Positions 11,937-51,722 of a stretch of 64,000 bases of DNA are shown here, in pieces (the stretch's first letter is position 1; every line of letters starts with the position of its first letter). The position numbers and the translations under genes were made by a program. The notes beneath the pieces were generated by a model that saw nothing but the letters and a program-made list of their open reading frames with translations, searched no databases and was not told where the DNA came from. The DNA lies in NCBI GenBank assembly GCA_964384025.1, contig CAYLJJ010000001.1:103601-167600 (forward strand). Reading direction: 5' to 3'. This DNA comes from an uncultured Nannocystaceae bacterium (GTDB lineage Bacteria > Myxococcota_A > Bradymonadia > UBA7976 > UBA1532).

Positions 11937-12413
11937 AACTTCAGCCTCTTCACAAAGATCATCATCCACCCAAGGATCTCCCGATTCATCCAATTCCCCC
12001 TCTTGGATCCCCAAGCTTTGGAGGAGGCGATCAGCATCAAAGGCCTCCAGTTCACAGCCCTCATCCTCCTCAAGATTGGCGCCCGTGCTGCGGACGCGAT
12101 ACCAACCAGGCTCTAGGCGCTCCAACAGGAAGGGCATCTCCCAGCGATCCAGGGCAGGATCGCGTCCGCTGCGGTTGGAGAGGTTCTCGCGGATAAACTC
12201 AGTGAAGCCCTCAGGATCCCGAGGAGAGGGAGGATCGCTGCTCTCCTCCAGGGCTCGGCTGATGAGCTGTAGCTCCTGTTGGGTAAAGAGGGCCCGAGCC
12301 CCGTTGACGATGATCCCTAAAGCTCGTTTTCCGATACGGGCGCTCCAAAAGAGACCGATGAGGAGCAGGAGCAGAGGGAGTGCTCGACGAAAGAGAGAGA
12401 ACAGTGCTCTCAC
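11922..12413 (-). CDS. hypothetical membrane-anchored acidic protein
   Basis: The track ORF runs to 12587. A GTG at 12413 (residue V59) forms a GTGA overlap with the stop of the upstream CNBD gene, and the product then begins VRALFSLFRRALPLLLLLIGLFW (a TM helix). The upstream 58 codons overlap the neighbouring gene. Confidence 0.45.
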   Translation of the reverse strand: MRALFSLFRRALPLLLLLIGLFWSARIGKRALGIIVNGARALFTQQELQLISRALEESSDPPSPRDPEGFTEFIRENLSNRSGRDPALDRWEMPFLLERLEPGWYRVRSTGANLEEDEGCELEAFDADRLLQSLGIQEGELDESGDPWVDDDLCEEAEVSGRF

Positions 12414-14428
12414 AGCGCTTCCAGTCGCGCCGCACAGATGCGATCTAGGCGCAGAAGGCTCTCCATATCCTCTACCAAGATCTCTCTCCAGGCTTCTGCA
12501 GGGATCCGGTGCAGGAGCAGCGCCTCTACCGCCCGCACAGTCGCCGTACGACAACCCCCTTTTAGGGCCACCACCTCCCCAAACCAATCACCGGGACCCA
12601 GCTCGGCGACGCTGTAACAGCTCCCTCCCTCTTCCTTCTCTATCCGTAGTCGCCCCACCTCGTTGAGATAGACCCCATCTTCTTCCTCTTCGCCCTGCTC
12701 TATGACCGCGACTCCAGGAGGAACCTCTAGGATAGAGCAGCGCGCCAGGAGCGCGCTGAGGCGCCCAGGTGAAGCAGCGGTGAGCCCAGGCAGGCGCCTC
12801 AGCATCGAGACCGCACGGATGGTATCGACGATCTCTTCTCCAGCCTGGATCCCTGCCTTAAAGTCCTCCTGAGAGATGCTCAAGACCAGCGCCGACTCCA
12901 TGGCGCGTACGGTAGCGTTGCGCTGCCCAGAGGAGACTAGGGCGATCTCTCCAAAGAAGGAGTGTGCTTCTAGCTCAGCGACTCCATGAATCAGGCCGCT
13001 CTCCTCTTCCCATTCTACCCGTGCACGACCTTCGGCAAGGAAGCAGAGGCGATCACCAGGATCCCCCTGTCTGAGGATCAGCTCCCCCTCCTGATAGGGC
13101 TCTCGCTTAAGGATCTCCGCCAGGGCTTGGCCTTGAGCCAAGGGTCTTAGATATTCGATCGCCTCAGCCGCTCGACGAAAAGCCCTCAACTCTTCAACCC
13201 GCGCGATCTGCCGAATCCAACGGGGCTTGGGCTCTAGGAGCTGAACAAGGATGACAAAGATGAGACCCACAAGGGAGGCGCTGAGAACGACCACGAGTAG
13301 AAAGAGGAGGAGACTGATCCCCAGGAGGCTCCAAGGGCGCTCCCCTTGCACCAGGAGCTGGGCCACCATACGAAGCACGGTAGGAAGGTATTGCTCTCCC
13401 AGTAAGCTTAGGAGCAGCAAGCCATGCAGAAGCCAACTGGAGACCAGGATGAGATAACGCCACTCTCCTCGGGTCATTCCTTGGCTCCGCCTTAGGTTGC
13501 GGCCCACTTGGCGGATAAGGAAACGTAGAGTTCTGCGCCTGAGTTTGGGGATACCGGTTAAGATCCCGGCGATATGCCAAGCATCTGTTTTTAGATAGGG
13601 GGCTAGATCCAGCAGAAGGAGCAGCAGCACGACCCCGGTAAAGAGCGGCGCCTCCAAGAACCGACCAAAAGCGAAGAGAAAACAGAGGCTGGCGAGTCCT
13701 CCCAGCGCCAGCTTGAGGCGTTGTTGGGCTGAGGCGGCGCGTCTGCTTGAGAGATCAAAGGCTAGATAGACACCCCAGGGGCGCAAACGTAGAAAGGCCC
13801 GAGGTACTGGCAGCTCAAAGCTTCTGAGCATCCAAGCTTTAAAGAGGCTTCTGAAGCTGAAGAGCATGCTTGGGAAGAGGATAAGGGCGAAGAAGAGAGC
13901 CAGAGGGGAGTTAAGCGCAGGGATCGGGTTCCAACTCTGAGGGCCTCCTAAGAGGCCGTAGAGCAGCGCCAGCAGCGCCAGAAGGAAGCTGAAGCTCCAG
14001 AAGTGCTGGGGGAGGAGTTTTCCAGGTACGGAGAGGATTCTCAAGGCTGGAAGAGGGAGTTGGCCTCGGATGCGGAGGCTGGGGGGCCCAAAGATGGGCG
14101 CATCTACACCCTCCAAGAGGCCTCGCTGATAGAGCCTGCGCAGGAGCCCTAAGATCTTCAAGGGTTGTAACCTGGGTTTGAGTTCCAGGCCCGCTCTGAG
14201 GATCATATCTAGGCTTCTGCCATCCAAAAATGGGAGGATCTGCTCCTCATCTGGGCTGAGGTCGAGAGCTCCCTGGGAACCAATCACTCTCCCCGCCTCT
14301 AAGCGCCCTAGAAATTTAGGTCTCTGGATCTGCACTCCATCTCCTCTTCCAGAGGGCTGACATCCCCTTGGGTTTATGGACTGTGCTTCTTCTGCCATGA
14401 GCTTGAAGAGACAACAGATGGCTGTCAA
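12410..14428 (-). CDS. polytopic membrane protein with two C-terminal cyclic-nucleotide-binding (CAP-type) domains
   Basis: Multiple hydrophobic helices in the central region. Two CNBDs in the C-terminal third: FGEIALVSSGQRNATVRA and FGEVVALKGGCRTATVRAVE. Alternative start at Met11 (14398). Confidence 0.7.
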   Translation of the reverse strand: MTAICCLFKLMAEEAQSINPRGCQPSGRGDGVQIQRPKFLGRLEAGRVIGSQGALDLSPDEEQILPFLDGRSLDMILRAGLELKPRLQPLKILGLLRRLYQRGLLEGVDAPIFGPPSLRIRGQLPLPALRILSVPGKLLPQHFWSFSFLLALLALLYGLLGGPQSWNPIPALNSPLALFFALILFPSMLFSFRSLFKAWMLRSFELPVPRAFLRLRPWGVYLAFDLSSRRAASAQQRLKLALGGLASLCFLFAFGRFLEAPLFTGVVLLLLLLDLAPYLKTDAWHIAGILTGIPKLRRRTLRFLIRQVGRNLRRSQGMTRGEWRYLILVSSWLLHGLLLLSLLGEQYLPTVLRMVAQLLVQGERPWSLLGISLLLFLLVVVLSASLVGLIFVILVQLLEPKPRWIRQIARVEELRAFRRAAEAIEYLRPLAQGQALAEILKREPYQEGELILRQGDPGDRLCFLAEGRARVEWEEESGLIHGVAELEAHSFFGEIALVSSGQRNATVRAMESALVLSISQEDFKAGIQAGEEIVDTIRAVSMLRRLPGLTAASPGRLSALLARCSILEVPPGVAVIEQGEEEEDGVYLNEVGRLRIEKEEGGSCYSVAELGPGDWFGEVVALKGGCRTATVRAVEALLLHRIPAEAWREILVEDMESLLRLDRICAARLEAL

Positions 14429-23411: not shown

Positions 23412-24320
23412 ATGCCGCGGCTTTGGATCTTGGAGGCGACTTTGAGGGGACTCCTGCTATCGCTTGGCTTTCTATTGCTGCCCCTCCTGGTGCAGGCCGA
23501 AGGAGAGAAGAGCACCGCTGTTCAAGCCTACAAAGCGGGGAGAGAACACTTTAAGGGGAAGCGTTTTGCTGACGCGATCCTTGAATTCAATAAAGCCTAC
23601 CGCCTCGATCCCAACCCTGTGTTGGTTTTTAATATGGCTCGTAGCTTTGAAGAGCTTAAAGAATACCGCTCCGCCATCGAATATTATCGTAAATATTTAG
23701 AGATGTCGCCAAAGGCGAAAGATCGAATTCAGGTTGAAGAATCCCTACGGACTCTAGAGCTGCTCTCCTCCAGAGAGGTTCATAGAGTACACCTTCAGAT
23801 CACATCTACTCCTGAAGGCGCTCAAGTTTTTGTAGATGGACAGGCCCGAGGACTCACGCCATTTCGTGGTGAAGTGACTCCAGGCAAACACTTTATCATG
23901 GTGGAGATGGAAGGTTATAGCCGACAGGTTGAGGAGCTTCTCTTTAAGAATAATGAACTGAAACATCACGTTCAACTGATCTCTATCGAAGCTGCTCCTG
24001 AGGCAAAAACGAAGGAGTCGAGCCAAGTGGGAGCTTGGACCCTCTTAGGGCTCAGCGCAGCCCTCTTGGTGGGCAGCGCCGTGTCGGGTTTTGCGGCCCT
24101 TGATCGACATCAGAGCCTTAATGATCTAGATGATGATCCCAGCAGAGGCGATGCCGCCGAATATGATTCTCTTAGATCTACTGGTCGCGATTTGAGCTAC
24201 CTGAGCGATGGTCTTCTCTTAGGAGGTGTCGCCAGCGGGATCACCGGAGCGATCTTTCTCTTTGGAGCTGAAGAGGAGACTGCCAGCTTCAGGCAGGGGA
24301 AAGAGCGATGGACGCGATGA
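23412..24320 (+). CDS. secreted TPR plus PEGA domain protein with a C-terminal TM anchor
   Basis: Signal peptide, then TPR-like AYKAGREHFKGKRFADAILEFNKAYRLDPNP. PEGA-like VHLQITSTPEGAQVFVDGQARGLTPFRGEVTPGKHFIMVEMEGY. TM helix WTLLGLSAALLVGSAVSGFAAL. Confidence 0.65.
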   Translation: MPRLWILEATLRGLLLSLGFLLLPLLVQAEGEKSTAVQAYKAGREHFKGKRFADAILEFNKAYRLDPNPVLVFNMARSFEELKEYRSAIEYYRKYLEMSPKAKDRIQVEESLRTLELLSSREVHRVHLQITSTPEGAQVFVDGQARGLTPFRGEVTPGKHFIMVEMEGYSRQVEELLFKNNELKHHVQLISIEAAPEAKTKESSQVGAWTLLGLSAALLVGSAVSGFAALDRHQSLNDLDDDPSRGDAAEYDSLRSTGRDLSYLSDGLLLGGVASGITGAIFLFGAEEETASFRQGKERWTR

Positions 24321-29594: not shown

Positions 29595-32500
29595 ATGAAA
29601 CTCAGACTCCTCTCTCTCCTGCTGCTCTCACTCTTCGCCTGTGATGAGGAGACCAGCCTCAGCGCAGCGGATGATCAGGGAGAGACCCTACCCCCAGGTC
29701 GTGACGCTGCCTTCAATGACAACACCCCAGACGCTGGAGAGGAGCGAGGAGATACAGGTCTGGAGCCGAGGCTCTTTGGAGAGCCCTGCCAGAGCCCCGG
29801 AGATTGCTTGATGGGCTACTGTGTTCCTGATCCTCAGGGCCTCCGTGTATGTACTCAGACCTGCTATGACGACGAAAGCTGTCCAGAGCAGTGGGAGTGT
29901 CGCCCAGTCAACAACACCTACCCCGACACCGTCTTTATCTGCGTCGCCGAGCGCCATGTTCAGTGTCTGCCCTGTGAGCATGATGGACACTGTGGCAGCG
30001 GTGAGGATCGCTGCGTCTCTATCGGCAACGGCCTCTATTGCGCTCGAAACTGTGTCACTGAAGCCTGCCCCGAGGGTCACAGCTGTACAGAGATGGAGAT
30101 CGATGGTGAGGCTCTCTCTCTTTGCCGCCCAGAGGGAGAGAGCTGTCGCCCCTGTCGAGACCAGGATGGAGATGGCTATGGTGAGGGAGAGGACTGCGCG
30201 GGCTTTGACTGCGATGATGAGGATCCTCTGATCTATGAGGGGGCTCCTGAGGTCTGCGACTCCAAAGACAACAACTGTAATGCTCTCACAGATGATGCGG
30301 TTGCGATTCCAGAGAGCGTAAGCTGCGGCCAGGTAGGAGTCTGTCAAGGCAGCATCCCTCGATGCGTTCAGGGAGCTTGGAGTTGTGATTATGGCAGCCT
30401 CTACAGCGAGGATGATCAGCGCTGCGATGAGTTGGACAATGATTGCGATGGCTCAGTGGATGAGGATGTGGACTTTGAGGGAGACCTAGAAAACTGTGGC
30501 TTCTGTGGAGAGGTCTGCGCCTTTGACAACGGCTTTCCTGATTGTGAGGAGGGAGTCTGCATTTTGGGGAGCTGTGAAGAGGAGTATTACGATCTGGATG
30601 AGGAGCCCGAGAATGGCTGTGAATACCACTGCAATTTAAGCAATGAGGGCGAGGAGCAGTGTGATGGCATCGACAACGACTGTGATGGGGAGATCGACGA
30701 AGAGACAAATCTCTTGGGAGATTCTCTGAACTGCGGAGGTTGTGGTCAGATCTGCGCCTTCGACTTTGCCCAGGCGCACTGTGAAGAGGGACGCTGCCTC
30801 TTGGCGGAGTGTGAACCTGAGCACTGGGACCTGGATCGAGATCCTGAGAATGGCTGTGAGTATATCTGCCTCTTTGATGCAGAGGAGGACCTCTGTGATG
30901 GCGTTGACAACGACTGTGATGGAGAGCTGGAGGAGGATGCTGATCTACACGGAGATCCGATGAACTGTGGGAGCTGTGGTCACGCCTGCGACTTTGAGTT
31001 CGCCAGCGCCTCCTGCATTGAGGGGGTCTGTGTGCTCCTGGAGTGCGATCCAGGGCATTGGGATCTAGACGCCCAAGCGGAGAATGGCTGCGAATATATC
31101 TGCGCTTTCAGCCCTGAAGATCCTGAGCAGTGTGATGGTATTGACAATAACTGTGATGGTCAGGTCGATGAGGAGTTCAACCTCGACAGCGATCTTCTTC
31201 ACTGTGGAGCCTGTAATCAGCTCTGCGCGCCCGCCTTCGCGCTCCCTCTCTGCGAGCAGGGTCGCTGCCTCTTTGAGAGCTGCCAAGCGGGGCACTACGA
31301 TCTCAACGGCATTCAGGAGGATGGTTGTGAGTATGATTGTCTCCCTACCGAGAGCGCTGAGGAGCGCTGTAATCTCAGGGATGATGATTGTGATGGCCTG
31401 ATCGATGAGGGCTTCGACCTCTCTTCAGATGTCAGCCACTGTGGAGTGTGTGAGCAGATCTGTGTTTACCCCAACGCTCGCCCGCTCTGCCTTGAGGGCG
31501 CGTGTCAGATGGGGGCCTGTGATCAGTTCTTCTGGGACATTGACGGCCTCTCAGAGAACGGCTGCGAGTATGCTTGTGTGATCACCCAGGGGGGACAAGA
31601 GGTCTGTGACGAGATCGACAACGACTGTGACGGTCTCATCGATGAGGGCTTCGATCTCAACAGCGATGTGGAGCACTGTGGGCTCTGCGATCAGGGCTGT
31701 GCTTTTCAGCGAGGGATCCCCCGCTGTCTGGGTGGAGAGTGCCTGTTGGAGGCCTGCGCAGAGGGCTACTGGGATCTTGATGAGGACTCAGATAATGGCT
31801 GTGAATATGCCTGCTTGCTTGACGGAGAGGAGATCTGCGATGAGATCGACAATGACTGTGACGGTCTTATCGATGAGGGCTTTGATCTCAACATCGATCT
31901 TGAGCACTGCGGAGCCTGTGAACAGCCCTGTGAGCCTCTACGGGCAGAGGGTCGCTGTATCGAAGGGCAGTGTACCATCGACCGCTGTGATTCAGGGAGT
32001 TGGGATCTGGATGGAGAGGTGGAGAGCGGCTGTGAATATCGCTGTGGTGAGAGTGGGGAGGAGATCTGTGATCAGCAGGACAATGACTGTGATGGCCTCA
32101 TCGATGAGGGCTTCGATCTAGAGGGAGATCCTCGGCACTGTGGGGTCTGCAACCAGCGCTGTGTTGCTGAGCATGCTGAGCCTCTCTGTCTCCAGGGAGA
32201 CTGTCAACCGGGAGAGTGTGAGCCCAACTGGCACGATCTAGATGGAGCCCCTGGTTGTGAGTACCCCTGTGCTCCGACCCTGGACGGAGAAGAGGCCTGT
32301 GATGAGATCGACAATGACTGCGATGGGGTGGTGGATGAGGGCTATGATCTAGAGCGGGATGTCGATCACTGTGGAGCCTGTGGCCAAGCCTGCCGCTACC
32401 CCTTTGGGGTGGGGGAGTGTCAAGCGGGGAGCTGCGTCCTCATCGCTTGCCACCACGGCTATGTTGATCAAAACGAGGATCCCAACGACGGCTGTGAGTA

Positions 32501-34874
32501 TGGCTGTGTACCCACAGGCTCTGAAAGCTGCGATGAGATCGACAACAATTGCAATGGAGAGATTGACGAGACCTTCCAGTTCCTCACTGACCTCCAGAAC
32601 TGTGGCCGCTGCAATAACGTCTGTTCCTTTGAACATGCGCTCCCAGCCTGTGAGTTTGGACACTGTCGCCTTATGGAGTGTGACCTGGGGCATATCAACC
32701 TCAATGGCCTCTCCCAGGATGGCTGTGAATATGCTTGCCTCGTCGATGGAGCGGAGCGCTGTGATCTACAGGACAATGACTGTGATGGCGCTGTTGATGA
32801 AGATTTCGATCTCCAAACAGACACCATGAACTGCGGTCGATGTGGAGAGATCTGCTTCTTTGACAACGCTACCCCAGAGTGTTTTGGGGGAGAGTGCCGT
32901 ATCGAGAGTTGCCAAGCGGGCTTCTGGAATCTGGATGGTGACTCAGAGAACGGCTGCGAATATCCCTGCTTTGTTACGGAAAATGGTGTTGAGGTGTGTG
33001 ACGAGGCCGACAATGATTGTAATGGCTTCGTGGATGAGGGTTTTGATCTCAGCCGGGATCCAGAGCATTGTGGAGACTGCAATGCTGCCTGCGACCTGCC
33101 CCACGCGGTCTCTGGTTGTCGGGCGGGGAGCTGTGTGATCACGGAATGCGCTCCAGGTCGAGTGGATCTGAACTTGGAGCCGGAGGATGGCTGTGAGTAC
33201 GCCTGCACCCCCAGCAACGATGGTGAGGAACGCTGTGATGAGCAGGACAATAATTGTGATGGAGAGATCGATGAAGGCTTCGATCTCAGCAGCGACCCGC
33301 TCAACTGTGGCCTCTGTGGTATTGACTGTCGGCGCCCCAATGCTCTCGTAGAGTGTGCGCTTGGGAGCTGCCAATTTCTGGGCTGTGAGGAGCATTATTG
33401 GGATCTGGACGGCAACGCGGCCAACGGCTGTGAATATGCTTGCCAGCGACAGGGAGCTGAGGATCTCCCTGATCTGATGGGCCTGGACAGCAACTGTGAT
33501 GGCATCGACGGCGACATTCAACATGCCCTCTTTGTTTCTCCCGCTGGAGATGATGAAGGCCCTGGCAGCATGGAGCGGCCCCTCCGCAGCTTAGGCGTCG
33601 CTATTACCCAAGCCTACGCCGATGATGAGATTCAACAGGTCCTTGTCTCTCGGGGTGTTTACCGAGAGGCGCTCCAGCTCAAAAACGCCGTCCATCTCTT
33701 TGGAGGCTATGATCACAGCCAGCGTTGGCTTCGCGATCTTGAACTCTATGAGAGCCGTATCGAGAGCGATTCGATCCCTGTACAAGCGTTCCTCGTCGGT
33801 GAGGAGACCTACTTTCAGGGCTTCACCATTGAAGATATCCATCTGGGCGCAGAGGGGCGCTCCAGCTACGCAGTTCATATCTCCTTTGGGGATGGTTTGA
33901 TCCTGGAGGCTTGTCGCATCATCGCTGGACCTGGTGGTTTTGGAGCTGATGGCATCTCAGGCAGCAATGGAGCCAATGGAGCTCGTGGGGGCGATGGACA
34001 GAGTGGCTATAATGATGGCAGCAGTGGTGGCTATGGTGGTGCTGGAGCGAGCAGCAGCTGTGGGGCAACAGGAGGAAGGGGAGGACGAGGAGGCTACGGA
34101 AATAATAGAGGGAGTGGAGGAGGCTCAGGTGGTGGGATTATGGGGGCTCCGGGTGGACCGGGCGGTGCCCCAGGGACAGACAACTGCTGGTCTGGTTGCA
34201 GTCACTCCGATCCGGGCTGTGGCCCCGGCCAATCGGGCTCGGGCTGCACAGGCAATCTCCTCAGTGGAGGCTCTGGGGGCTCTGGACAACAGGGCGCTGG
34301 AGGAACGGGCGAGGGTCAACTGGATGGGCTCTACTGGGTTGGCTATGTGGGGCAGGATGGCGTTGATGGAGTACATGGCAGCGGCGGAGGTGGTGGGGGC
34401 GGTGGTGCTGGCAATGACTGCTGCTTAGATGATCGAGGCGGCGGCGGTGGGGGCGGCGGCGCGGGTGGCTGTGCTGGCACCCGAGGTCGTGGAGGTCACG
34501 CGGGTGGAGGAAGCTTTGGCGTCTTTATCTACCACGCCAACCCTGAGGTTCGAGACAACCTGATCATCACCGCTGGGGGGGGCTCTGGTGGTGACGGTGG
34601 CGATGGAGGTCTTGGTGGAAATGGTGGTTTAGGAGGCGCTGGCGGCCCTCGTCGAGATGATGGCAACCGTGGAGGTTCTGGGAGCAGTGGAGGTCGCGGT
34701 GGTCGTGGTGGCTGCGGTGGTGGTGGCGCGGGGGGTGTCTCCTACGGCATCTACCGCGTTCAGGATGCCGAGCCGATCCTCAGCGGCAACAGCTTTGAGA
34801 TCGGCCCTGGTGGTCAGGGTGGCAGCAGCTGTCGGCATCCAGGTGAAGAGGGAGACTCTGGAGAGCTGCTCTAG
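29595..34874 (+). CDS. giant secreted/lipoprotein: 13 tandem Cys-rich MopE-like modules, a DUF1565-like beta-helix N-cap and a Gly-rich C-terminal region
   Basis: Signal and lipobox LLSLFAC. 13 copies of a ~70-aa, 8-Cys module ExCDxxDNDCDGxxDEgfDLxxDxxNCGxCGxxCxfxxAxxxCxxGxCxxxxCxxGxwDLDgxxENGCEYxC. Then HALFVSPAGDDEGPGSMERPLRSLGVAITQAYADDEIQQVLVSRGVYRE (beta-helix cap-like). Then a ~330-aa GGxGG-rich region. Confidence 0.85.
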   Translation: MKLRLLSLLLLSLFACDEETSLSAADDQGETLPPGRDAAFNDNTPDAGEERGDTGLEPRLFGEPCQSPGDCLMGYCVPDPQGLRVCTQTCYDDESCPEQWECRPVNNTYPDTVFICVAERHVQCLPCEHDGHCGSGEDRCVSIGNGLYCARNCVTEACPEGHSCTEMEIDGEALSLCRPEGESCRPCRDQDGDGYGEGEDCAGFDCDDEDPLIYEGAPEVCDSKDNNCNALTDDAVAIPESVSCGQVGVCQGSIPRCVQGAWSCDYGSLYSEDDQRCDELDNDCDGSVDEDVDFEGDLENCGFCGEVCAFDNGFPDCEEGVCILGSCEEEYYDLDEEPENGCEYHCNLSNEGEEQCDGIDNDCDGEIDEETNLLGDSLNCGGCGQICAFDFAQAHCEEGRCLLAECEPEHWDLDRDPENGCEYICLFDAEEDLCDGVDNDCDGELEEDADLHGDPMNCGSCGHACDFEFASASCIEGVCVLLECDPGHWDLDAQAENGCEYICAFSPEDPEQCDGIDNNCDGQVDEEFNLDSDLLHCGACNQLCAPAFALPLCEQGRCLFESCQAGHYDLNGIQEDGCEYDCLPTESAEERCNLRDDDCDGLIDEGFDLSSDVSHCGVCEQICVYPNARPLCLEGACQMGACDQFFWDIDGLSENGCEYACVITQGGQEVCDEIDNDCDGLIDEGFDLNSDVEHCGLCDQGCAFQRGIPRCLGGECLLEACAEGYWDLDEDSDNGCEYACLLDGEEICDEIDNDCDGLIDEGFDLNIDLEHCGACEQPCEPLRAEGRCIEGQCTIDRCDSGSWDLDGEVESGCEYRCGESGEEICDQQDNDCDGLIDEGFDLEGDPRHCGVCNQRCVAEHAEPLCLQGDCQPGECEPNWHDLDGAPGCEYPCAPTLDGEEACDEIDNDCDGVVDEGYDLERDVDHCGACGQACRYPFGVGECQAGSCVLIACHHGYVDQNEDPNDGCEYGCVPTGSESCDEIDNNCNGEIDETFQFLTDLQNCGRCNNVCSFEHALPACEFGHCRLMECDLGHINLNGLSQDGCEYACLVDGAERCDLQDNDCDGAVDEDFDLQTDTMNCGRCGEICFFDNATPECFGGECRIESCQAGFWNLDGDSENGCEYPCFVTENGVEVCDEADNDCNGFVDEGFDLSRDPEHCGDCNAACDLPHAVSGCRAGSCVITECAPGRVDLNLEPEDGCEYACTPSNDGEERCDEQDNNCDGEIDEGFDLSSDPLNCGLCGIDCRRPNALVECALGSCQFLGCEEHYWDLDGNAANGCEYACQRQGAEDLPDLMGLDSNCDGIDGDIQHALFVSPAGDDEGPGSMERPLRSLGVAITQAYADDEIQQVLVSRGVYREALQLKNAVHLFGGYDHSQRWLRDLELYESRIESDSIPVQAFLVGEETYFQGFTIEDIHLGAEGRSSYAVHISFGDGLILEACRIIAGPGGFGADGISGSNGANGARGGDGQSGYNDGSSGGYGGAGASSSCGATGGRGGRGGYGNNRGSGGGSGGGIMGAPGGPGGAPGTDNCWSGCSHSDPGCGPGQSGSGCTGNLLSGGSGGSGQQGAGGTGEGQLDGLYWVGYVGQDGVDGVHGSGGGGGGGGAGNDCCLDDRGGGGGGGGAGGCAGTRGRGGHAGGGSFGVFIYHANPEVRDNLIITAGGGSGGDGGDGGLGGNGGLGGAGGPRRDDGNRGGSGSSGGRGGRGGCGGGGAGGVSYGIYRVQDAEPILSGNSFEIGPGGQGGSSCRHPGEEGDSGELL
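30415..33460 (+). repeat. 13 tandem ~210-bp coding repeats (diverged, roughly 60-70% identical by eye) inside the giant gene
   Basis: Recurrent blocks tgtgatgg..gacaatgactgtgatgg...ctgtgg..ggctgtgaatat at ~210-bp spacing. They generate many spurious overlapping ORFs on both strands. Confidence 0.8.
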
Positions 34875-37782: not shown

Positions 37783-38988
37783 GTGAACAAGGGGTGGTTG
37801 TGCCCAGCCGGTGAAATGCAGAGAGGGAAGCTCGCCCACATCTTAAGCAGCTGCTTTGCGGTCAGCGATGAGGAATCCCTGAACTGGTTTAAGAGGCTGG
37901 GAGAGGAGAATGTTCGAGTTGCCTTGCGTTTAGGTGAGGTGCAGGGGGGGATGGTATTGCTCCCGATGTTCCAGTACTTCGGTGGCAGACCCATCCCGAT
38001 GATGGGGGTGGCTGGGGTAGGAGTCTCTCCCTGTTATCGTCGCCAAGGTTTGGCTAAGAAGATGATGAAGCAGGCGTTGCTGGAGGCTCATGAGCGGGGC
38101 TTTGCTCTCTCCAGCCTCTACGCATCCAGCTTGGCCCTCTATCGCCACTCGGGCTATGAGCTGGCGGGGGGACGTTATAAGGTTCAGATCCCCGCTGAGT
38201 TGATCAAGGTCAAGGGTGACACAAGCAGGATCCAGGAGCTGGAAGAGGCGGATTTTGAAGCGGTCAAAGAGGTTCATCAGCGCTTCGCTGAAGCGGGCAA
38301 CGGCCAACTGGGACGCCCTGAGGCGCTCTGGCGTCGAGCACGCTTTGAGCGAGATGGGCGTCCCCTCTTTGGCTATGGCTATAGAACTGCGAAGGGTCTG
38401 GAGGGCTACCTCTATCTGCGAACGGAGCGTCAGCCCGGAGAGATGCACCATCTGCTCAAGCTGACCGACTTTATCGCTCTCAATGAAGCCGCAGCGCGAG
38501 GGCTCTGGGCCTTACTGAGCAACCACGCGACTACAGCATCGAATGTCCACTGTTTCCTCTCTCCCTGGAGCCTACCCCCTATGGTCTTAGAGGAGCGGCA
38601 AGCCCTCAAGACGCGGTTACTGGACACTTGGACTCTGCGGATCCTCAACATCCCTCTGGCCCTAGAATCACGCGGCTACCCCAAAGCGGTCTCTGGACGA
38701 GTCTCTCTTCGGATAAAAGACAAGCAGCTCTTCCAAAACAACCGCGCTTGGGTTTTGGATGTCGATAGGGGAGTTGCCCAGGTAAAGGTGGATGCTGAGC
38801 TTCCGTCACGCCTGAGATCATCCCATCCAGTCTTTTTGGGACCCAGGGGGCTCTCTGCCCTCTTTAGCGGTCATATGAACCCATTTCAGCTTAAAGCCCT
38901 GGGTTTTTTGGATGGAGAAGATCGAGACCTACTGACACTCCAGCTTCTCTTTGGAGGACCTCAACCCTGGATGATCGATATGTTTTGA
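37783..38988 (+). CDS. Eis-like GNAT acetyltransferase (tandem GNAT plus SCP2-like C-terminus)
   Basis: GNAT core GMVLLPMFQYFGGRPIPMMGVAGVGVSPCYRRQGLAKKMMKQALLEAHERGFALSSLYAS. ~400-aa length and C-terminal region are consistent with the Eis/SCP2 architecture. Confidence 0.6.
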   Translation: MNKGWLCPAGEMQRGKLAHILSSCFAVSDEESLNWFKRLGEENVRVALRLGEVQGGMVLLPMFQYFGGRPIPMMGVAGVGVSPCYRRQGLAKKMMKQALLEAHERGFALSSLYASSLALYRHSGYELAGGRYKVQIPAELIKVKGDTSRIQELEEADFEAVKEVHQRFAEAGNGQLGRPEALWRRARFERDGRPLFGYGYRTAKGLEGYLYLRTERQPGEMHHLLKLTDFIALNEAAARGLWALLSNHATTASNVHCFLSPWSLPPMVLEERQALKTRLLDTWTLRILNIPLALESRGYPKAVSGRVSLRIKDKQLFQNNRAWVLDVDRGVAQVKVDAELPSRLRSSHPVFLGPRGLSALFSGHMNPFQLKALGFLDGEDRDLLTLQLLFGGPQPWMIDMF

Positions 38989-39012
38989 ATAAAACTTAGA
39001 AATAACTCAAGA

Positions 39013-41544
39013 TTGCAACAAACAGTCCAAAAAAAGAGTGTTTTCCCATTGATAGAGCCTCGACCACTCAAATGCCCAGTTACAGGGTTGCTTATTCGGC
39101 GCGATCCTGCTTGGCAAGATATCCAGATCAATAAAGATTATTATGTCAGCTTTGAACTCATTGGAGAGTATATACTTCATACACAAATAAAGGGATTTTC
39201 TCCAAATCTAGATGTCGATCTTTTATATCAATACCGAGAAGTTGCGTTAATGGAATATTTAGGGGAGCCCTCTGATTTTATTGAGATAAAGAGATATGAC
39301 GACATCTATGGGCGTTCATCTAATGAGCAGATTAAGAAAAACATCTTTCATTTCATAAAAGACAACAATAGATGTCGTGGTTTTTTTGGATATGGTGCCA
39401 GATTATGGATTCGTAGTGTATTTAACCTGGCTTCTCGTCATTATAAAGTTAGATATCCTATCGAACAATATGGTTCTTACACTGAAGCGATTCAAGTTGC
39501 TCTGACAATTGAGAACAAACTCAGATTCGAAAAAGAATTTCGATCATTTATATTGCCTCATAAAACATATTTGGATGGAAATACTGGGTATGAGTTTTCT
39601 CAAATAAAAGACCATACTCTAATTATAAAACTAATCGGTTTTGTTAGTGATCCAAAGATCACTGAAGAGTTAATTCAGTTGCAGAGATCTGCTTACCAAG
39701 ACGGGCTTCTCAAGAAAGATAATAACTATCGGATTTTAGACTATTCTGAGTTTAGTGGAGCAACATGGAGTAGACGTTGGGCATATATAAATGGTCTCAA
39801 GAAATGTTATGAAGACTATGGCAAACCTAAAGCGATAGTATTTATTAGTACAAACAAATCTATGGAGTCATTTATCCGATCGATTGTTGCGTTTTTAGGC
39901 GCACCGTATTTCTTCGTTGAAAATTTTTCTGATGCGGTCAAAATTATCAGTGAACTTAAGTTTCATGGGTCTAAAAATGCCAAATCTGCACTTAAGCAGC
40001 TTACATATATTAGTCCACGTAGACTTTGGCGTCGTTGGTACAAGCTTCCTAAGCTTAGAGATCTTGAAGAGCTGTTTCTCAATTTAGGCCGAGTAGTTTG
40101 GGAACCTCAACCCTCCGAATTGCCTGATGTCAGCCCTGAACATCCCCTCGCTGATATATACTCTGCCCTACATCTTATCGTTCATGATGTAAAGCAGCTA
40201 TTGGATGAACGTCATAAACGCGAGAAAAAACTATCCCAAGTCCAAGATGAACTGATTCTCAGCAATCAGCGATTAGAAGAAGCTCTACAGCACTCAAAAG
40301 AGCTAACCCAAGAAGCTCAGGAAATGGCACATCAAGCCAAAGCCAGTAGCCAAGCAAAAAGCACATTTTTGGCCAATATGAGTCATGAAATACGCACTCC
40401 TATGAATGGAATCATCGGAATGTGTGCTTTGCTAAACGAATCGGAGCTAAATTCAAAACAACAAGAACAGCTAGGGATAATTCAACAAAGCTCTAAGCAC
40501 TTATTGAATTTAATCAACAGTATTCTGGATATTTCAAAACTTGAAGCGGGAAGGATGGAATTTGAACAACTTGATTTTCAACTTAAAGAGCAAATCAATG
40601 CACTTTTTAATACACTCTCTACCCAAGCAAAGAAGAAAGACATTCAGCTCCTGGCTGAGATCTCTCCTGATATTCCTAAGGCTTTGTTAGGAGATCAATC
40701 ACGTCTCCAACAGATCCTGCTCAATCTCTTGGGTAACGCGATCAAGTTCAGCCAAAATTGCTCGGTTCTGCTGCAAGTGGAGCTTCTCTCAGATCCTCAG
40801 AAAGAGGGGCCTATATCTCTACGCTTTGCGGTGAAAGATCAGGGTATCGGGCTCTCCCCAGAACAGCAGGAGCGCCTGTTCGAACCCTTCGTTCAAGCGG
40901 ACAGCTCCACTACCCGCCGTTATGGAGGGACCGGATTGGGCCTTTCTATCTGTCGCCACTTGGTGAAGCTATGGGGTGGCGAAATGGGAGTAAAGAGCAG
41001 CTTAGGAGAAGGCAGCGAGTTCTGGTTTGTGATCTCACTACAACAAGGCAAGGAGCAAGCGCGTACTCTTCCTGAGAGCAAGCAACTAAGCCAACTCAGA
41101 CAAGGGCCTCCCCTGCGGCTTCTCCTGGCTGAGGATAATCCTGTTAATCAGAGGGTTGCCCTGGGAATTTTGCGGCGCCTGGGCCATCAAGTCCAAGCTG
41201 TAAATGATGGCCTAGAAGCCCTGCAAGCCCTCAAAGAGGGCAGCTATGATCTGGTGCTCATGGACTGCCAGATGCCAAGGCTGGATGGCTATGAGGCCAC
41301 CAAGGCGATCCGCAGCGCTGGAGCCTCTTTAAGTGATCCACAGATCCCTGTGATCGCTATGACTGCCAACGCCATGACTGAGGATCGCCAGCGCTGCTTA
41401 GACGCAGGGATGAACGCCTATCTGAGCAAGCCAGTGAGGCCACAGTTGCTCGCTCAGGTTCTGGACCACTGGGGTAATAGAGCAGAGATCCAGAGGAGTG
41501 ACGGGGAACGACCGGATCCAGATATGGAGGGGTCGCCAAGTTGA
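39013..41544 (+). CDS. hybrid sensor histidine kinase / response regulator with a ~430-aa cytoplasmic N-terminal sensor region
   Basis: HisKA H-box [15 protein letters not shown]. HATPase N, G1 and G2 boxes ([27 protein letters not shown]). Receiver domain with [20 protein letters not shown] and a conserved Lys. No TM segments. Start codon is uncertain (TTG at 39013; no nearby ATG). Confidence 0.85.
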
Positions 41545-41625
41545 ATTTTATATACTCAGAAGCGCAGTTGATTGAATCCAGAGAGGGCAGAGTTTAGCAT
41601 CGGTGATCTTCGCTTCAGAGGGGAT

Positions 41626-42921
41626 ATGAGCGACAAACTACGTTTTGGAGAGATCCTGACTCGAGCGGGGGTCTTAGAGAGAACAGATCTGGAGAGCATC
41701 CTGTCTCTGATCGGAGACAGCGCGGTTGATCTGGGAGAGGTCTTGGTGAGCCGAGGTTTTTTAGATGAAGCCACGATGCTCAAGACCATCAGCAAAGCGC
41801 TCAATCTACCAAGCATAAGCCTAAAACATATCCAGCCAGATAAACGTGGTTTGGAGCTGATCCCCAGAGAGTTTTGTGCAGATCACTTCCTCCTGCCAGT
41901 GGAGGTAGAGCGTAGCCGCACTGGAGAGCATCTCCATGTGGCCATGGCCAACCCCTCTGATGTACGTGCCATCAAGCGCGTCACTCGAAAGGCCCGCCTT
42001 AGAATTCGTCCCCTGGTGGCCTCAGCTCGGGAGATTCGCGAGGCGATCCAACGCTGGTACGGTGGAGAGCTGGTTGAGGACTCCTCTCTGATCTTAGAGG
42101 AGAGCCTTAACTCCAGTATGGGAGGAGAAAACTCCAGTGAGAACCTCTTTGACTTTGGCCTCGGTGACCTTTCTCAATCCCTTCCAACAAAACAAGCCTC
42201 AACCCCTCCAAGAGCAAACTCTTCAAAGAGGAGAGGTGAAGAGGGGAGAATAACGCCCCCTGATCTGCCCAAGCAACGTAAGGCAGATCTGCTCAACGCT
42301 CTTGACTTAGAACCGGGATCCCAAACCTCCGAGGTCCAAGAGCGAGAGGAGCAAGGGTTTGGAACATTACCGAGGAGAGGCTCAAGACACCGTCCGCCTT
42401 CAGAGCGTCCTCCCTTTCGGAATTCAGAGCGTCCTCGCTCAGAGCGTCTGCCTCCTCTTCCGCGCCAGACCTCTCGAGAGCTTCCACCTCTCCCACCCAG
42501 TCTGCGAAGCGGCAATCAGAGGAAAGCCCCACGCAGCTCCTCAATTCCTCCTCAGAACATCAAACATAGCCGCGGCTCCTCAGCTCCTCCTCAGGGTGCT
42601 CAGGGTATCAAATACCACCAAAATTCAGCGCCGACCCTCGTTGAGGAGCGGGGCAGCGTTGAGGAACTCAAGGGGGTTTTGGATCGCTATGTCGCTGAGA
42701 TCAATGAGGAGAGCAGTGGAGATGGGCTGATCTCTCAGGAGTTGAAGCGTTACGGTCTTAAGAGATCATCTCCCGAGTCTGAGCTTTTCGCAGCTTTAGA
42801 GAACACCTTGAGTCGTGCTCAGGGTCCCAACGCTCAGCTTCTCCTCGCGCTGATCCGGCAACTGGCGCGCAGAGGCCTTTTGGATCTTCAGGAGCTGCTC
42901 TCGGATCTGCCCCCTCAGTGA
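41626..42921 (+). CDS. stand-alone MshEN / T2SSE_N domain protein (predicted c-di-GMP receptor) with a long Ser/Pro/Arg-rich disordered tail
   Basis: Tandem MshEN motifs RFGEILTRAGVLERTDLESILSLI, GDSAV, DLGEVLVSRGFLDEATMLKTISKA, then the rest of the GspE N-terminal fold. No ATPase domain. Start at ATG 41626 with GAGGGG upstream; the track begins at an upstream TTG. Confidence 0.7.
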   Translation: MSDKLRFGEILTRAGVLERTDLESILSLIGDSAVDLGEVLVSRGFLDEATMLKTISKALNLPSISLKHIQPDKRGLELIPREFCADHFLLPVEVERSRTGEHLHVAMANPSDVRAIKRVTRKARLRIRPLVASAREIREAIQRWYGGELVEDSSLILEESLNSSMGGENSSENLFDFGLGDLSQSLPTKQASTPPRANSSKRRGEEGRITPPDLPKQRKADLLNALDLEPGSQTSEVQEREEQGFGTLPRRGSRHRPPSERPPFRNSERPRSERLPPLPRQTSRELPPLPPSLRSGNQRKAPRSSSIPPQNIKHSRGSSAPPQGAQGIKYHQNSAPTLVEERGSVEELKGVLDRYVAEINEESSGDGLISQELKRYGLKRSSPESELFAALENTLSRAQGPNAQLLLALIRQLARRGLLDLQELLSDLPPQ

Positions 42922-47593: not shown

Positions 47594-48124
47594 TCAAAGA
47601 TCCCAAATCCACTTGGAGCGCTGATAGGGCTTGGCTCTCTGGCGTTTCTTTTTACGACGCGCTGCCCGTTTGCGGGCCCTCTCCTTGGCTTTGCGCTTCT
47701 CCTCTTTTGGATCGATCTTGGGGGGAGGCTCTACTGTAGCTTGAACTCGATCTCCTAAGCTGATAGCGAGGGCCTCAGGGCTGCTCCTCTTCTTTCGAGA
47801 CTTTCTCCTGCGTTTTCTCTTTTTAAGACCATCATAGACGATCTCGGCGATGAGAAGCTTGCCTCGAATCTCCTTGATCTTAAGCTGGCCCACGTTGACT
47901 CGATACTGGCTCTCAGCCTCGCCGGGGATGTTTCGCTCTCGCAGCACAGTGAAGCGCCCTCCCAAGAGCAACTTCATCTGCTCCTCGGGTCCCTTTAGGC
48001 GCTTTAAAAAGACCTGTCGAGTTGCGGTCACAAAGCGGCCTTTAAGCTCTACAGGTCGGTGGATGTTGATCACCTCCAGCTCAAAACTGATCAGGCTGAG
48101 GAGGAGAGAGAACAGAGGGCTCAT
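47594..48124 (-). CDS. hypothetical protein with a highly basic Lys/Arg-rich C-terminal tail
   Basis: 4-nt overlap with the cyaA stop. N-terminal hydrophobic segment. C-terminus KKRKRRRKSRKKR...KRKAKERARKRAARRKKKRQRAK. Confidence 0.45.
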   Translation of the reverse strand: MSPLFSLLLSLISFELEVINIHRPVELKGRFVTATRQVFLKRLKGPEEQMKLLLGGRFTVLRERNIPGEAESQYRVNVGQLKIKEIRGKLLIAEIVYDGLKKRKRRRKSRKKRSSPEALAISLGDRVQATVEPPPKIDPKEEKRKAKERARKRAARRKKKRQRAKPYQRSKWIWDL

Positions 48125-51100
48125 GGGCTCTCCCTGAAGGGGCTTCGGCTGGTCACGCTGCGGATCTTCTCTCCACGAAAGACCAAGAGAGCTCGCTTCA
48201 AAGCGTTCTCATAGAGGTCGATGAGGCGCAGGTGCTTGACCACGCCTCGATCAACCCCCTTTTGACGATGCGCCGGTCCAAAGTTGACTACCGAGGCGTC
48301 GATCTCGAAGAAGTCTGCATCGTAAGGGCTGCGTCTCCTCATCAACTCAAGCAGGGTCTCGTAGACAAAGGCGCGACCATGCTCCTGGGCGCTGATGCGT
48401 CGCTGAGCGATCTGAAACCAGAGCCCAGCGCGCCCCTTCTGGAGATCCCCACCCAACCAAAGCTCCTCTCTGGAGCTGCGAGCTTGCATCAAAGCGTCCA
48501 GGACCCTCTGAGTATCATCCAGAGGGCTGGCCTGCTCTCCAGGGCGCTGTGGCCCCCTCAGATGAAAGATACGGAGCTGGCGGCGCAGCTCTCGGGTGTT
48601 ACGCACAGACTCTCGGAGTCGCAAGATGATGCGACGCACCAGGGTCAATAGGATCCCCTCAAGATCTTGAGGGGGGAGTTGACGGTGATAGATGCGTTGG
48701 ATCTCATCACAGATAAAGATTTGACCCCGTTGAGGGGAGAGCCGCCAAGCGATAAGGACCCCTGGCTGAAGCTCATCGAGGCGACGCTTTACCAGAAGCC
48801 GTAGATCTCCCAGGTTCGCTGAGAGGCGATCGATCTTCAACTCCTGGAGGTCATAGCCACAGTTGCCCAGAATACGACAGACCCCTTTGAGAGAGCGGAG
48901 CCCGCAGAGAAGATCACCATCAGCGCTGCGATAGATCACTTGGAAACGCCCCCCCACCTCATAGACAAAACCCCGACTGTGGCGCGGCTTGAGAGGCTCT
49001 ACTAGGACCCAGCTGCTCTCCCGCAGTAGTTCAGTGATGCGGTTGCGCACCGCAGGCAGCATACGGTCTGAGGGCGCCAAAACCACGACCTCTTCTATCG
49101 CCGCCTGAGGTTCAACTTCAGCGAAGAGAGACTTAAGGGCTGAGGGCACCGCCTGAGGCCCTGAGTGGCGATGGCAGAAGACCTCCCCCCAACTATTGAG
49201 GCTGAGGACAGAGACTTCGCTGAGTTGGCAGCGTCGTTTGCGACCATAGTTGAGGATGTCCCAGTTTTCAGGGAGATAAAAGACGCCTGCCTGCTCACTG
49301 GCGTCACTGAGGGTTCTGGGGCGATCAAAGTTCACCAGCACCGCCACCCTCAAGATTGAGCGGCGCTCTAGAAAGCGGCCAGGGGCGATACTGAAGGGAT
49401 CAGGACTCTCAAAGATCCTCTGGAAGCGCTGAAGCATCCCCCGCAACTCATTGGGGCTGACACGCGAGATGGGGCTGATCAGGGCTACCACCGTACCGGA
49501 GTGATAGAGGCCATTAAAGGTGAGCCAACCGGCGATCTCTGCGATGGTTGAGGCGCTCCAGATCGGCTCCCCTCGGCTGAGGATGCGCTCTCTCTTTAAC
49601 TCCCGATGGATCTCCCAGCGTCGCACAGGGAGGGCTTCAGGGACCTCTAAGATGACCAAGCGATCTTCACAGCGGGGTTCCTTGAGGAAGTAGGTAAAAA
49701 GATGACGGATCTTGCCTGGCTCTCGCCCAAAGACCGCGAAGAGACGACGCCCCAGGATGGTGATATCCTTCTCGTTGATATGAACGGTGGCCTCTCTGGC
49801 TCGGCGAATCAGGTGGCGGTAGAGCCCCAACATAAAGCTGCGGATCTGTTGCCCAATCTCGTCCACCTTCTCAGCCGACCAGCTTTCCAAGCTGTCCAGC
49901 TCCTCAAGCAGTTCGCGATCCCACCCCCAACGCTCGATATAGGCGCGCATCACTTGAAAGCGCCGCATAAAGAGCTTGCGCTCAGAGCGCTCCTTGGAGA
50001 GCTTAAGCCCTACCTTGAGATAGAAGCACTTCTGCACCAGACGGAAGGCTTTCCAGTCCCCTCGATCAGCAAAATATCCACTGATAGCGTCAAAGAGGAG
50101 CACATAGGGATCGGTGTACTGAGGACCATCCTCACCCTGAAAGACGCGCTCTTTGAGCTGGTCACAGAGCAGCCTGGGTTTTGGATCATCCAGATAACGC
50201 AGCAGCAAAGCCATCTTGAGCAAGCTCTTAAAAGGACTCCTCAAGCTCTTGTTGATTTGCCAAAGCGCAGCGCCAAAGAACTCTCCACGATCAATCTCAG
50301 CGATAAAGCCCAGATCCACCACTGAGATGCCAGGGGGGAGCTGAGCCCTTTCAAGAGCATGAAGCACACGCTGATAGCCCTGCGCGCTGACCCCTACAGG
50401 TACCAGCCACCAAGCGGGGATATCTCCACTGATCAGCACCGCCGTACGATAAAACTCCTCCTTTAAAAGCTTGCCTTGAGCGCTGCCTGATGAGTCTACA
50501 TCCTCCTCCGCTCCCCCGAAGTCATTGGCTCGGCTGCGCTTTAGATCCACCAGGAAGAAGTGTGCATCGAGGCCTCGCTTCTGAACCCAGGCTTCAATCT
50601 TCTGGATACGCTCTTTAAGAGCTCGCTGCTGTTGCAGAGAGAGGCGGTCAAGCTCAACAACGACCCAGTAATCAACATCACTCTTACCCGATTGACCGAT
50701 GGTGCCCACGCTGCCCATCGCCAAAAGAGAGAGGATATGCGGTCTCTGAGGAGGCTGCTCAGCCAGGGCCCCTCGTCGAGAGAAGAAGCCCTCAGCTGCG
50801 TGGCGAATGCTGAGGTTGAACTCAAAGTTACGGATTCCGTGGGGCGCTCCGGCGACATAGCTTGGCAGGTGGGGGAGATTTTGGTGAAGGAGGTAGGGGA
50901 TCACCGAAAAGAGATTGCGCTCCTTGGGCTTGAGCGCCTGATATAGATAAGCCAGTTTCATCTTGGTGAAGCGCAGATAGGCTTGTAGATGCTTGCCCAG
51001 CTGCTCTATCCCCAGACCTGAGTCCATGCTGCGACTGGACTGAAGCATCTCCTTAAAATAGGGCTTCGCGAATGATAGCCCCTCCTCGGGACCTTCCTCC

Positions 51101-51255
51101 TTCTGCTCCAGGGTGATCGGCCCCGAGTACTCCAGCTTAAGGGGGGTAGCTTCCTCCGCGATCCAAGCCCCAGCAAACTCCTCCTTGCTTAGGCCCTGGA
51201 GCCAGCCGGCTACAGAGTCAGTTGCCTGTGGAGGAGGAAGCTTGGGCAAGATCAC
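48121..51255 (-). CDS. cyaA: class I adenylate cyclase (CyaA family, enterobacterial type)
   Basis: Alignable by eye to E. coli CyaA. [21 protein letters not shown] matches [43 protein letters not shown] matches [20 protein letters not shown] (catalytic Asp pair). FFLVD matches FFLID. [21 protein letters not shown] matches [40 protein letters not shown] matches [42 protein letters not shown] matches CFYLKVCEKLSRER. GTG start forms a GTGA overlap with the fliW stop; the N-terminus is ~75 aa longer than E. coli, and Met68, Met75 and Met108 are possible alternative starts. Confidence 0.85.
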   Translation of the reverse strand: [1044 protein letters not shown]

Positions 51256-51722
51256 CTCAGAGAGATGGAGCGGGCCTCAGAGCTTTGCCCTGGTTGCCCC
51301 TCCTTTAGAACATAATATTTGACCGGGTATCGCTGATCCCTCAGAACAAGCTGCATCCCCAGCCGCTTCTCCAAGTTAAAGATCAAGGGAGCCAAGAGGT
51401 TGGCGCTCATCTCTCTCACCTCAGCAGGGATGGTCATCAACACCGAGACCACCAAGTCCTCTTCCTCTCTCGGCTCGATCACCTGAACCTCTGAGCGTTT
51501 CAGAGAGATATGGTAGTCAGGCTTAAAAAAGAGGGGATCAGTGACTACAAAAGCCAGCTGAGGCTCATCCACAGACTGCAACCATTTGAAGGGTGTACCC
51601 TCGTGATCAACGATCACATAACGACGCTGTTTAGCAAACCCCAGGAGCCCCATAGGGAAATAGTAGAGTTGAGCCTCATCGATCTCCAGGGAGCCAAAGC
51701 GACTGGTCTGAATATTCATCAC
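51252..51722 (-). CDS. fliW: flagellar assembly factor FliW (CsrA antagonist)
   Basis: FliW signature FGSLEIDEAQLYYFPMGLLGF...YVIV..EGTPFKWLQSVDEPQLAFVVTDP. 4-nt overlap with csrA. Confidence 0.85.
   Translation of the reverse strand: MMNIQTSRFGSLEIDEAQLYYFPMGLLGFAKQRRYVIVDHEGTPFKWLQSVDEPQLAFVVTDPLFFKPDYHISLKRSEVQVIEPREEEDLVVSVLMTIPAEVREMSANLLAPLIFNLEKRLGMQLVLRDQRYPVKYYVLKEGQPGQSSEARSISLR

Follow-up and report, generated by a model that had tools for sequence, protein, structure and literature searches.

Can one uninterrupted gene carry the composition of two different genomes? This question is raised by a locus in the 64,000-nucleotide stretch of DNA analysed here (hereafter the window), which corresponds to positions 103,601 to 167,600 of contig CAYLJJ010000001.1 in the assembly GCA_964384025.1 of an uncultured Nannocystaceae bacterium. 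On its forward strand lies a gene for a predicted hybrid histidine kinase, whose 5′ part differs sharply in composition from its 3′ part. The original prediction, made from the letters and open reading frames (ORFs) of the window, took it for an AT-rich input half recently acquired or swapped onto a GC-rich catalytic half. According to our analysis, the 5′ part is foreign by base composition, codon usage and amino-acid usage, beyond the variation found within the genome. The gene is probably a natural mosaic that arose by sub-genic lateral transfer from an unsampled low-GC homolog, the sequence of which was joined to a host-like 3′ end.

In 300-bp windows, the GC content drops from 0.56–0.60 to 0.33–0.44 between approximately 38900 and 40750. 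Over the whole 64 kb, 500-bp windows have a mean GC content of 0.562 with a standard deviation of 0.042, and the minimum of the trough, 0.342, lies about five standard deviations lower. Only one other 500-bp window is below 0.48; this is a mild minimum of 0.466 at 23501–24000, unlike the kinase trough, and it falls in a protein with TPR and PEGA domains (23412–24320, forward strand). A maximum-likelihood fit with two change points set the left border at 38970 (support 38858–38988) and the right border at 40700 (support 40613–40806), with a GC content of 0.374 inside and 0.556 outside and a log-likelihood ratio (LLR) of 82.5. The trough described in the original prediction as having no equal in the window is, thus, a clear step, and the AT-rich 60-mer quoted there as an example was located at 39121–39180.

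The same step is seen at the level of codons. Within the ORF 39013–41544, the GC content at third codon positions (GC3) changes at codon 564 (support 533–569), from 0.32 before to 0.59 after this point. The LLR of this step is 28.9; among 40 other genes in the window the maximum is 7.6, and the largest value in 1000 permutations of the codon order of the kinase ORF was 9.7. A score analogous to the codon adaptation index (CAI-like score), with the codon usage of the other 46 ORFs of the window as the reference, amounted to 0.532 for the first 564 codons in comparison to 0.706 ± 0.032 for the other genes; even the lowest 280-codon chunk elsewhere in the window scored higher (0.611). The last 279 codons, with a score of 0.659, are within the host range. 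The encoded protein is shifted in the same direction: FYMINK residues make up 31% of the 5′ part, 17% of the 3′ part and 17% in the host, and GARP residues 19%, 29% and 31%, respectively. This shift of amino-acid usage alongside the codons points to a long stay of the 5′ part in a low-GC genome. GC3, codon usage and amino-acid usage therefore agree that the 5′ part is compositionally foreign and the 3′ part host-like.

Homologous genes from four other genomes do not have such a step, as can be seen from the GC3 of their two parts:

P0189 (locus L084): 5′ part 0.79, 3′ part 0.85
P0006 (locus L001): 5′ part 0.62, 3′ part 0.59
P0212 (locus L087): 5′ part 0.34, 3′ part 0.33
P0198 (locus L088): 5′ part 0.32, 3′ part 0.32

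Since these homologs are compositionally uniform, the step is not intrinsic to the domains. The last two also show that the kinase family is carried by low-GC lineages, in which the gene has a GC content of 0.35–0.37 and a GC3 of 0.32–0.33, matching the foreign segment.

The AT-rich segment and the parts of the gene are arranged as follows:

38970..40700, forward strand: AT-rich segment, presumed foreign (GC 0.37, GC3 0.32), recognised by the maximum-likelihood change points, the CAI-like score and FYMINK usage
39013..41544, forward strand: predicted hybrid histidine kinase ORF, 843 aa if begun at TTG 39013 and 831 aa from the likelier start, TTG 39049
39064..39543, forward strand: predicted STAS/SpoIIAA-like domain 1, aa ~18–177, after a conserved CPVTGL motif (Foldseek; AlphaFold2 predicted local distance difference test, pLDDT, ~90)
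39562..39993, forward strand: predicted STAS/SpoIIAA-like domain 2, aa ~184–327, an internal duplicate of domain 1
39994..40353, forward strand: low-confidence loop, conserved helices (W363, EHPL motif, D392) and a signalling helix/coiled coil rich in Q, E, K and L, aa ~328–447
40354..40551, forward strand: HisKA domain (dimerization and phosphoacceptor domain, DHp) with the H-box SHEIRTP, aa 448–513 (Pfam PF00512, E 1.4e-21), still AT-rich
40690..41043, forward strand: HATPase_c domain (catalytic and ATP-binding domain, CA), aa 560–677 (PF02518, E 1.2e-27, profile positions 1–110 of 111)
41122..41463, forward strand: receiver domain (REC), aa 704–817 (PF00072, E 6.5e-27), with host-like composition (GC3 0.59)

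The AT-rich segment therefore spans a short 5′ leader, both sensor domains, the helical linker with the coiled coil, the HisKA/DHp domain and the DHp–CA linker. The codon-level view of GC3 places the beginning of the switch at the N-box, at codon ~565 (nt ~40705), within the CA domain's first helix; the support interval of the right border takes in the DHp–CA linker as well as the N-box. A junction near the DHp–CA boundary had been proposed; our result puts it at or beside this boundary and refines it to the N-box. The HATPase_c domain is complete across the junction. The position of the crossover could be explained by microhomology, the N-box being in the CA domain's most conserved stretch, or by selection favoring a join that is neutral for the structure. 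The left junction falls in unique intergenic DNA. No copy that could serve as a silent cassette for gene conversion was found in the window (blastn, E ≤ 1), and the AT-rich DNA contains no excess of internal promoters, with five promoter-like sites as against 4.5 expected.

The product of the gene appears intact. The frame stays open for 843 codons, across the composition step, and includes a canonical H-box, as had been predicted. The transmitter motifs are preserved (H458 in SHEIRTP at 457, the N-box at 572, G1 at 609, F at 623 and G2 at 638), and the same is true of the receiver motifs (AEDNP at 706, LMDCQMP with D751, MTANA at 783–787 with T784 and LSKP at 804–807 with K806). With its H-box, full set of ATPase boxes and receiver pocket, the protein is, as judged from its sequence, a HisKA, HATPase_c and REC hybrid histidine kinase. 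No HPt domain was found in the polypeptide. The highest Kyte–Doolittle hydropathy over 19 residues is 1.32, which indicates no transmembrane helix and agrees with the earlier suggestion of a soluble sensor. There are three candidate starts (39013, 39049 and 39088), all of which are TTG. No clear Shine–Dalgarno sequence precedes 39013, and AAGAG stands ~12 nt before 39049. One of the public gene calls, P0281, begins at 39049; another, P0127, begins at 39088, an internal TTG, and loses the conserved CPVTG motif. TTG 39049 is the more likely start, as it is used by P0281 and fits the onset of conservation in the family.

What, then, is the foreign input module? Residues 1–430 have no match in Pfam, and the original prediction could not place the two halves of this region in a known family. 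In our analysis, both halves could be placed. They align with each other by hhalign with a probability of 98.6% (E 7e-16, 132 columns), and an AlphaFold2 model of the sensor, built on a 19-sequence alignment, has a mean pLDDT of 82.7 and comprises two β3-α-β-α-β-α-β-α units followed by helices. A Foldseek search of the PDB with this model gave 2q3l (DUF3478, “SpoIIAA-like fold”), the SpoIIAA structures 1h4z, 1th8 and 1tid and the anti-sigma-factor antagonists 4hyl, 4xs5 and 4qtp; the halves matched with a probability of 1.0 and target-normalised template modelling scores of 0.6–0.76. The modelled sensor is thus a tandem pair of STAS/SpoIIAA-like domains that lies outside the curated models: none of the curated STAS models PF01740, PF13466 and PF11964 matches it at E ≤ 1, and one of the 19 sensor relatives has a sub-threshold match to PF11964 (E 1.4e-3). 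Each half would share the β-α STAS fold with the STAS/SpoIIAA superfamily; the difference is that here a tandem pair is fused N-terminally to a kinase and bears an extra N-terminal β-hairpin and the CPVTGL motif. No paper describing a tandem STAS-like input was found in the literature searched.

Several residues are conserved throughout the sensor family. A near-invariant CPVTGLP motif is located ~8 residues from the N-terminus (39049–39090; family alignments A1 and A2), and the invariant positions are W34, G51, I54, Y156, G209, W363 and D392. After the β-strand “EI+DY” comes a conserved G-x-P-S/T-x-x-x-R, roughly at the position of the phospho-serine of SpoIIAA, which we regard as a lead only. 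There is no partner-switching kinase of the SpoIIAB/RsbW type adjacent to the gene. In alignment A2, no stretch is conserved enough for pattern-based scanning.

The input module belongs to a large and diverse family. A word-index protein search with the sensor revealed only six relatives, with 24–27% identity, and an exhaustive HMMER profile search returned 1008 cluster representatives at E ≤ 1e-3, 322 of them at E ≤ 1e-30. The module is usually N-terminal, in proteins of 500–1800 aa, and among the best 150 family representatives at least 53 have the sensor–HisKA–CA–REC layout throughout. The closest relative, P0189, is collinear with the window kinase over 862 aa, with identities of 34%, 36% and 41% for the sensor, DHp and CA plus REC segments, respectively, although its gene stands in an unrelated context. 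As the full layout is common in the family, the architecture is ancestral, and the event made no new domain order. The genomic context of the sensor family is variable: at L001 (8583–12870) a member lies beside a sigma-54 activator response regulator and a GGDEF protein, and at L084 (8645–9946) a member lies beside a FIST-domain protein.

Several observations weigh against a transferred 5′ part. We found no donor for it; the nearest relative of the sensor is 34% identical and comes from a genome with 64% GC. No close relative of either half of the gene was found in any collection searched, that is, by the word-index protein and exhaustive HMMER searches, in plasmid DNA and protein, in phage protein, in IMG/VR and in the JGI metagenomes, and the plasmid and phage searches gave no similarity of the segment beyond the H-box. 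No sister-lineage locus was recovered either, as scans for the Eis-like acetyltransferase encoded upstream of the kinase were empty in the GTDB species genomes and the JGI metagenome contigs. When the closest relatives of the halves were compared, the rankings of segment similarity were essentially uncorrelated (rho 0.09, 0.06 and -0.23), P0189 being first for the sensor, 37th for the DHp and 15th for CA plus REC; every relative is just 25–50% identical, too distant to show phylogenetic incongruence between the halves. The case for a foreign origin is therefore a compositional one. The borders carry no marks of a mobile element: direct and inverted repeats there are at chance level, integrase and other mobile-element genes are absent, no tRNA was found in the 64 kb and no Rfam family at the borders. 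Furthermore, the last 60–100 codons of the Eis-like gene (38690–38988) have an intermediate GC3 of 0.43–0.50, in comparison to 0.63 for the whole gene, and the left border may be more gradual than in the model; the change-point LLR at this 3′ end is 5.2, within the range of other genes.

The sampling of the host bears on these negative results. The best non-self homologs of the Eis-like protein are no more than 37% identical and are not syntenic, and two of its homologs (L085 and L086) have no kinase nearby. A scan of species-representative genomes for the DppD-like ABC ATPase yielded only matches of 40–51%, scattered over many phyla. The host lineage is isolated and poorly sampled.

Three other explanations of the composition step have to be weighed against the mosaic. 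The one closest to the original prediction is a true domain graft, in which an AT-rich sensor and DHp from an unrelated protein were fused to a resident CA and REC that formerly had a different input. Such a graft would account for the step and would suit a family whose proteins vary from 540 to 1800 aa and whose tandem STAS-like module is also joined to other cores, as in P0001–P0006, which lack a receiver and have a DHp of the HEINNP type; N-terminal inputs are, moreover, commonly shuffled in kinases (PMC1630713). However, the resulting architecture is the commonest in the family, found in 53 representatives and collinear in P0189, and the moved piece takes in the DHp and has its end in the CA domain or beside it instead of at the sensor–DHp boundary. 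It is at this boundary that kinase input modules are normally exchanged. We therefore consider a graft unlikely. Of the horizontal acquisition or domain swap proposed originally, the foreign composition of the input part stands, but the joining of an unrelated module into a new architecture does not, and the event is better described as a partial replacement or conversion between homologous genes, or else as a graft that is unproven. More improbable still is divergence in situ, by which the whole gene would be native and its 5′ 1.7 kb would have turned AT-rich locally, through selection on expression control or reduced GC-biased gene conversion. Although the failure to find a donor, mobile-element scars or a sister locus is in line with this, and a gradient could be seen in the intermediate GC3 with which the Eis-like gene ends, the right border is a sharp one in the middle of a domain, and both synonymous sites and amino acids have values typical of a genome with ~35–40% GC. 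In addition, nothing comparable occurs in the 40 other genes or in the rest of the 64 kb, and the homologs elsewhere are uniform. We know of no mechanism that makes a 1.7-kb tract with such borders.

The metagenomic source of the assembly also calls for a check on the contig itself. A GC-rich contig might have taken up reads of the homologous kinase of an AT-rich organism during assembly; conserved motifs can give rise to misjoins, and the right junction lies in one. However, contig Ga0105013_1002007 of JGI sample 3300007510 is 99.991% identical to the window over 22,457 bp (29088–51544), including both junctions. It has just two differences (34482 C/G and 34490 T/G), 4.5 kb upstream of the kinase; both sit in a 1759-aa protein with MopE-type metal-binding repeats (29595–34874, forward strand). 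Scaffold_123 of ENA ERZ23498660 (SAMN10231913) is 100% identical, with both junctions identical, and further contigs of 165 kb and 235 kb are listed in the cluster records. Since both junctions recur in separate datasets, an assembly artefact, the possible misassembly noted in the original prediction, is excluded. Two in-frame misjoins repeated identically across separate datasets would be implausible, and the left junction is in unique intergenic DNA; we see hardly any chance that the gene is an assembly chimera.

According to the mosaic explanation, which we favor, ~1.73 kb would have come from a homologous hybrid histidine kinase of an AT-richer lineage, with roughly 35–41% GC. The imported stretch would run from the leader through the tandem STAS-like sensor, the signalling helix and the DHp, which has the phospho-accepting histidine, to the DHp–CA linker; an in-frame join at the N-box, or shortly before it, would connect this stretch to a 0.84-kb CA and receiver part of host composition. 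Two routes may be envisaged. In the first, a resident hybrid kinase had its 5′ part replaced; in the second, a foreign gene entered in its entirety between the Eis-like gene and the downstream gene for an MshEN-domain protein, and a resident paralog subsequently converted the 3′ end of the newcomer.

The product would be a hybrid kinase that is soluble and cytoplasmic, and its tandem STAS-like module, by analogy with what is known of the family, may bind a ligand or a partner protein. The helical linker (W363, EHPL and D392) and the Q/E/K-rich signalling helix would carry the signal to the DHp. With ATP bound in the native CA domain, H458 would be phosphorylated and the phosphoryl group passed to D751 of the tethered receiver, and from there to a separate HPt protein and a response regulator. 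The combination of a foreign DHp with a native receiver would be tolerable, because covalent tethering relaxes the specificity between kinase and receiver in hybrid kinases (PMC8175716, citing Capra 2012). Perhaps, then, although we hold this with slightly more doubt than belief, the gene is a recent functional chimera, in which the DHp and input of a lineage with ~35–40% GC work with the CA and receiver of a host with ~56% GC. It would represent an almost unameliorated snapshot of an exchange upstream of the ATP-binding domain, and its input would belong to a widespread undescribed tandem STAS-like class (~1000 cluster representatives).

Fragmentary lateral transfer with breakpoints inside ORFs is common in prokaryotes (Chan, Beiko, Darling & Ragan 2009, PMC2817436). 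As in those mosaics, a breakpoint inside the ORF joins segments of differing history here, and the product is intact. The difference is that the earlier cases are phylogenetic breakpoints among orthologs, whereas the window kinase has an almost unameliorated GC3 step (0.32 vs. 0.59) between very divergent partners. Turnover, shuffling and horizontal transfer of input domains in histidine kinases have been described by Alm, Huang & Arkin (2006, PMC1630713), who followed the histories from the kinase domain and considered the upstream domains alone. The likeness is that the origin of the input region differs from that of the kinase core; in the window, however, the swapped piece extends through the DHp as far as the N-box of the CA domain, with the domain order unchanged. 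Breakpoints inside ORFs and turnover of kinase inputs are, thus, already known, and the window gene is an unusually clean and almost unameliorated example; the junction is unusual in that the DHp moves with the sensor and the crossover is at the N-box. In comparison to the BarA, GacS and TorS hybrid kinases, the HisKA–HATPase_c–REC core and its motifs are the same, but the window protein is predicted to be soluble, has no HAMP, PAS or HPt domain of its own and has a tandem STAS-like input.

If functional, the mosaic would be a natural experiment on kinase modularity. It would mean that very distant lineages can exchange the specificity-bearing DHp along with the sensor and still keep their resident ATP-binding and receiver domains, and that the crossover can lie at the N-box instead of the sensor–DHp boundary used in engineered chimeras. 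Since hardly any amelioration has taken place in the foreign part, a comparison of parent and product is in principle still possible once the donor lineage is sampled. The input module, for its part, defines a sizeable family of predicted tandem STAS-like cytoplasmic sensors that has no curated model and merits one of its own.

The kinase gene is closely flanked by two genes on the same strand:

37783..38988, forward strand: Eis-like GNAT acetyltransferase (Acetyltransf_9/17 and SCP2_2), upstream, with its stop 24 nt (or 60 nt) before the kinase start
41572..42921, forward strand: MshEN-domain protein, downstream, starting 27 nt after the kinase stop

These short gaps suggest that the three genes form one operon. 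The Eis-like gene is likely co-transcribed with the kinase, and the MshEN gene probably belongs to the same operon. Elsewhere, the window encodes flagellar proteins, many Ser/Thr kinases, FHA proteins, MopE repeats, a MXAN_5808-like peptidase and a TraB-like OmpA protein, a set of genes that may point to a Myxococcota- or Bdellovibrionota-like host. Beside the flagellar cluster, a class-I (enterobacterial-type) adenylate cyclase (48121–51255, reverse strand) overlaps FliW (51252–51722, reverse strand) by 4 nt, and a protein with two cyclic nucleotide monophosphate-binding domains is encoded at 12410–14428 (reverse strand). Taken together, this overlap and the cyclic nucleotide-binding protein hint at motility control linked to cyclic AMP.

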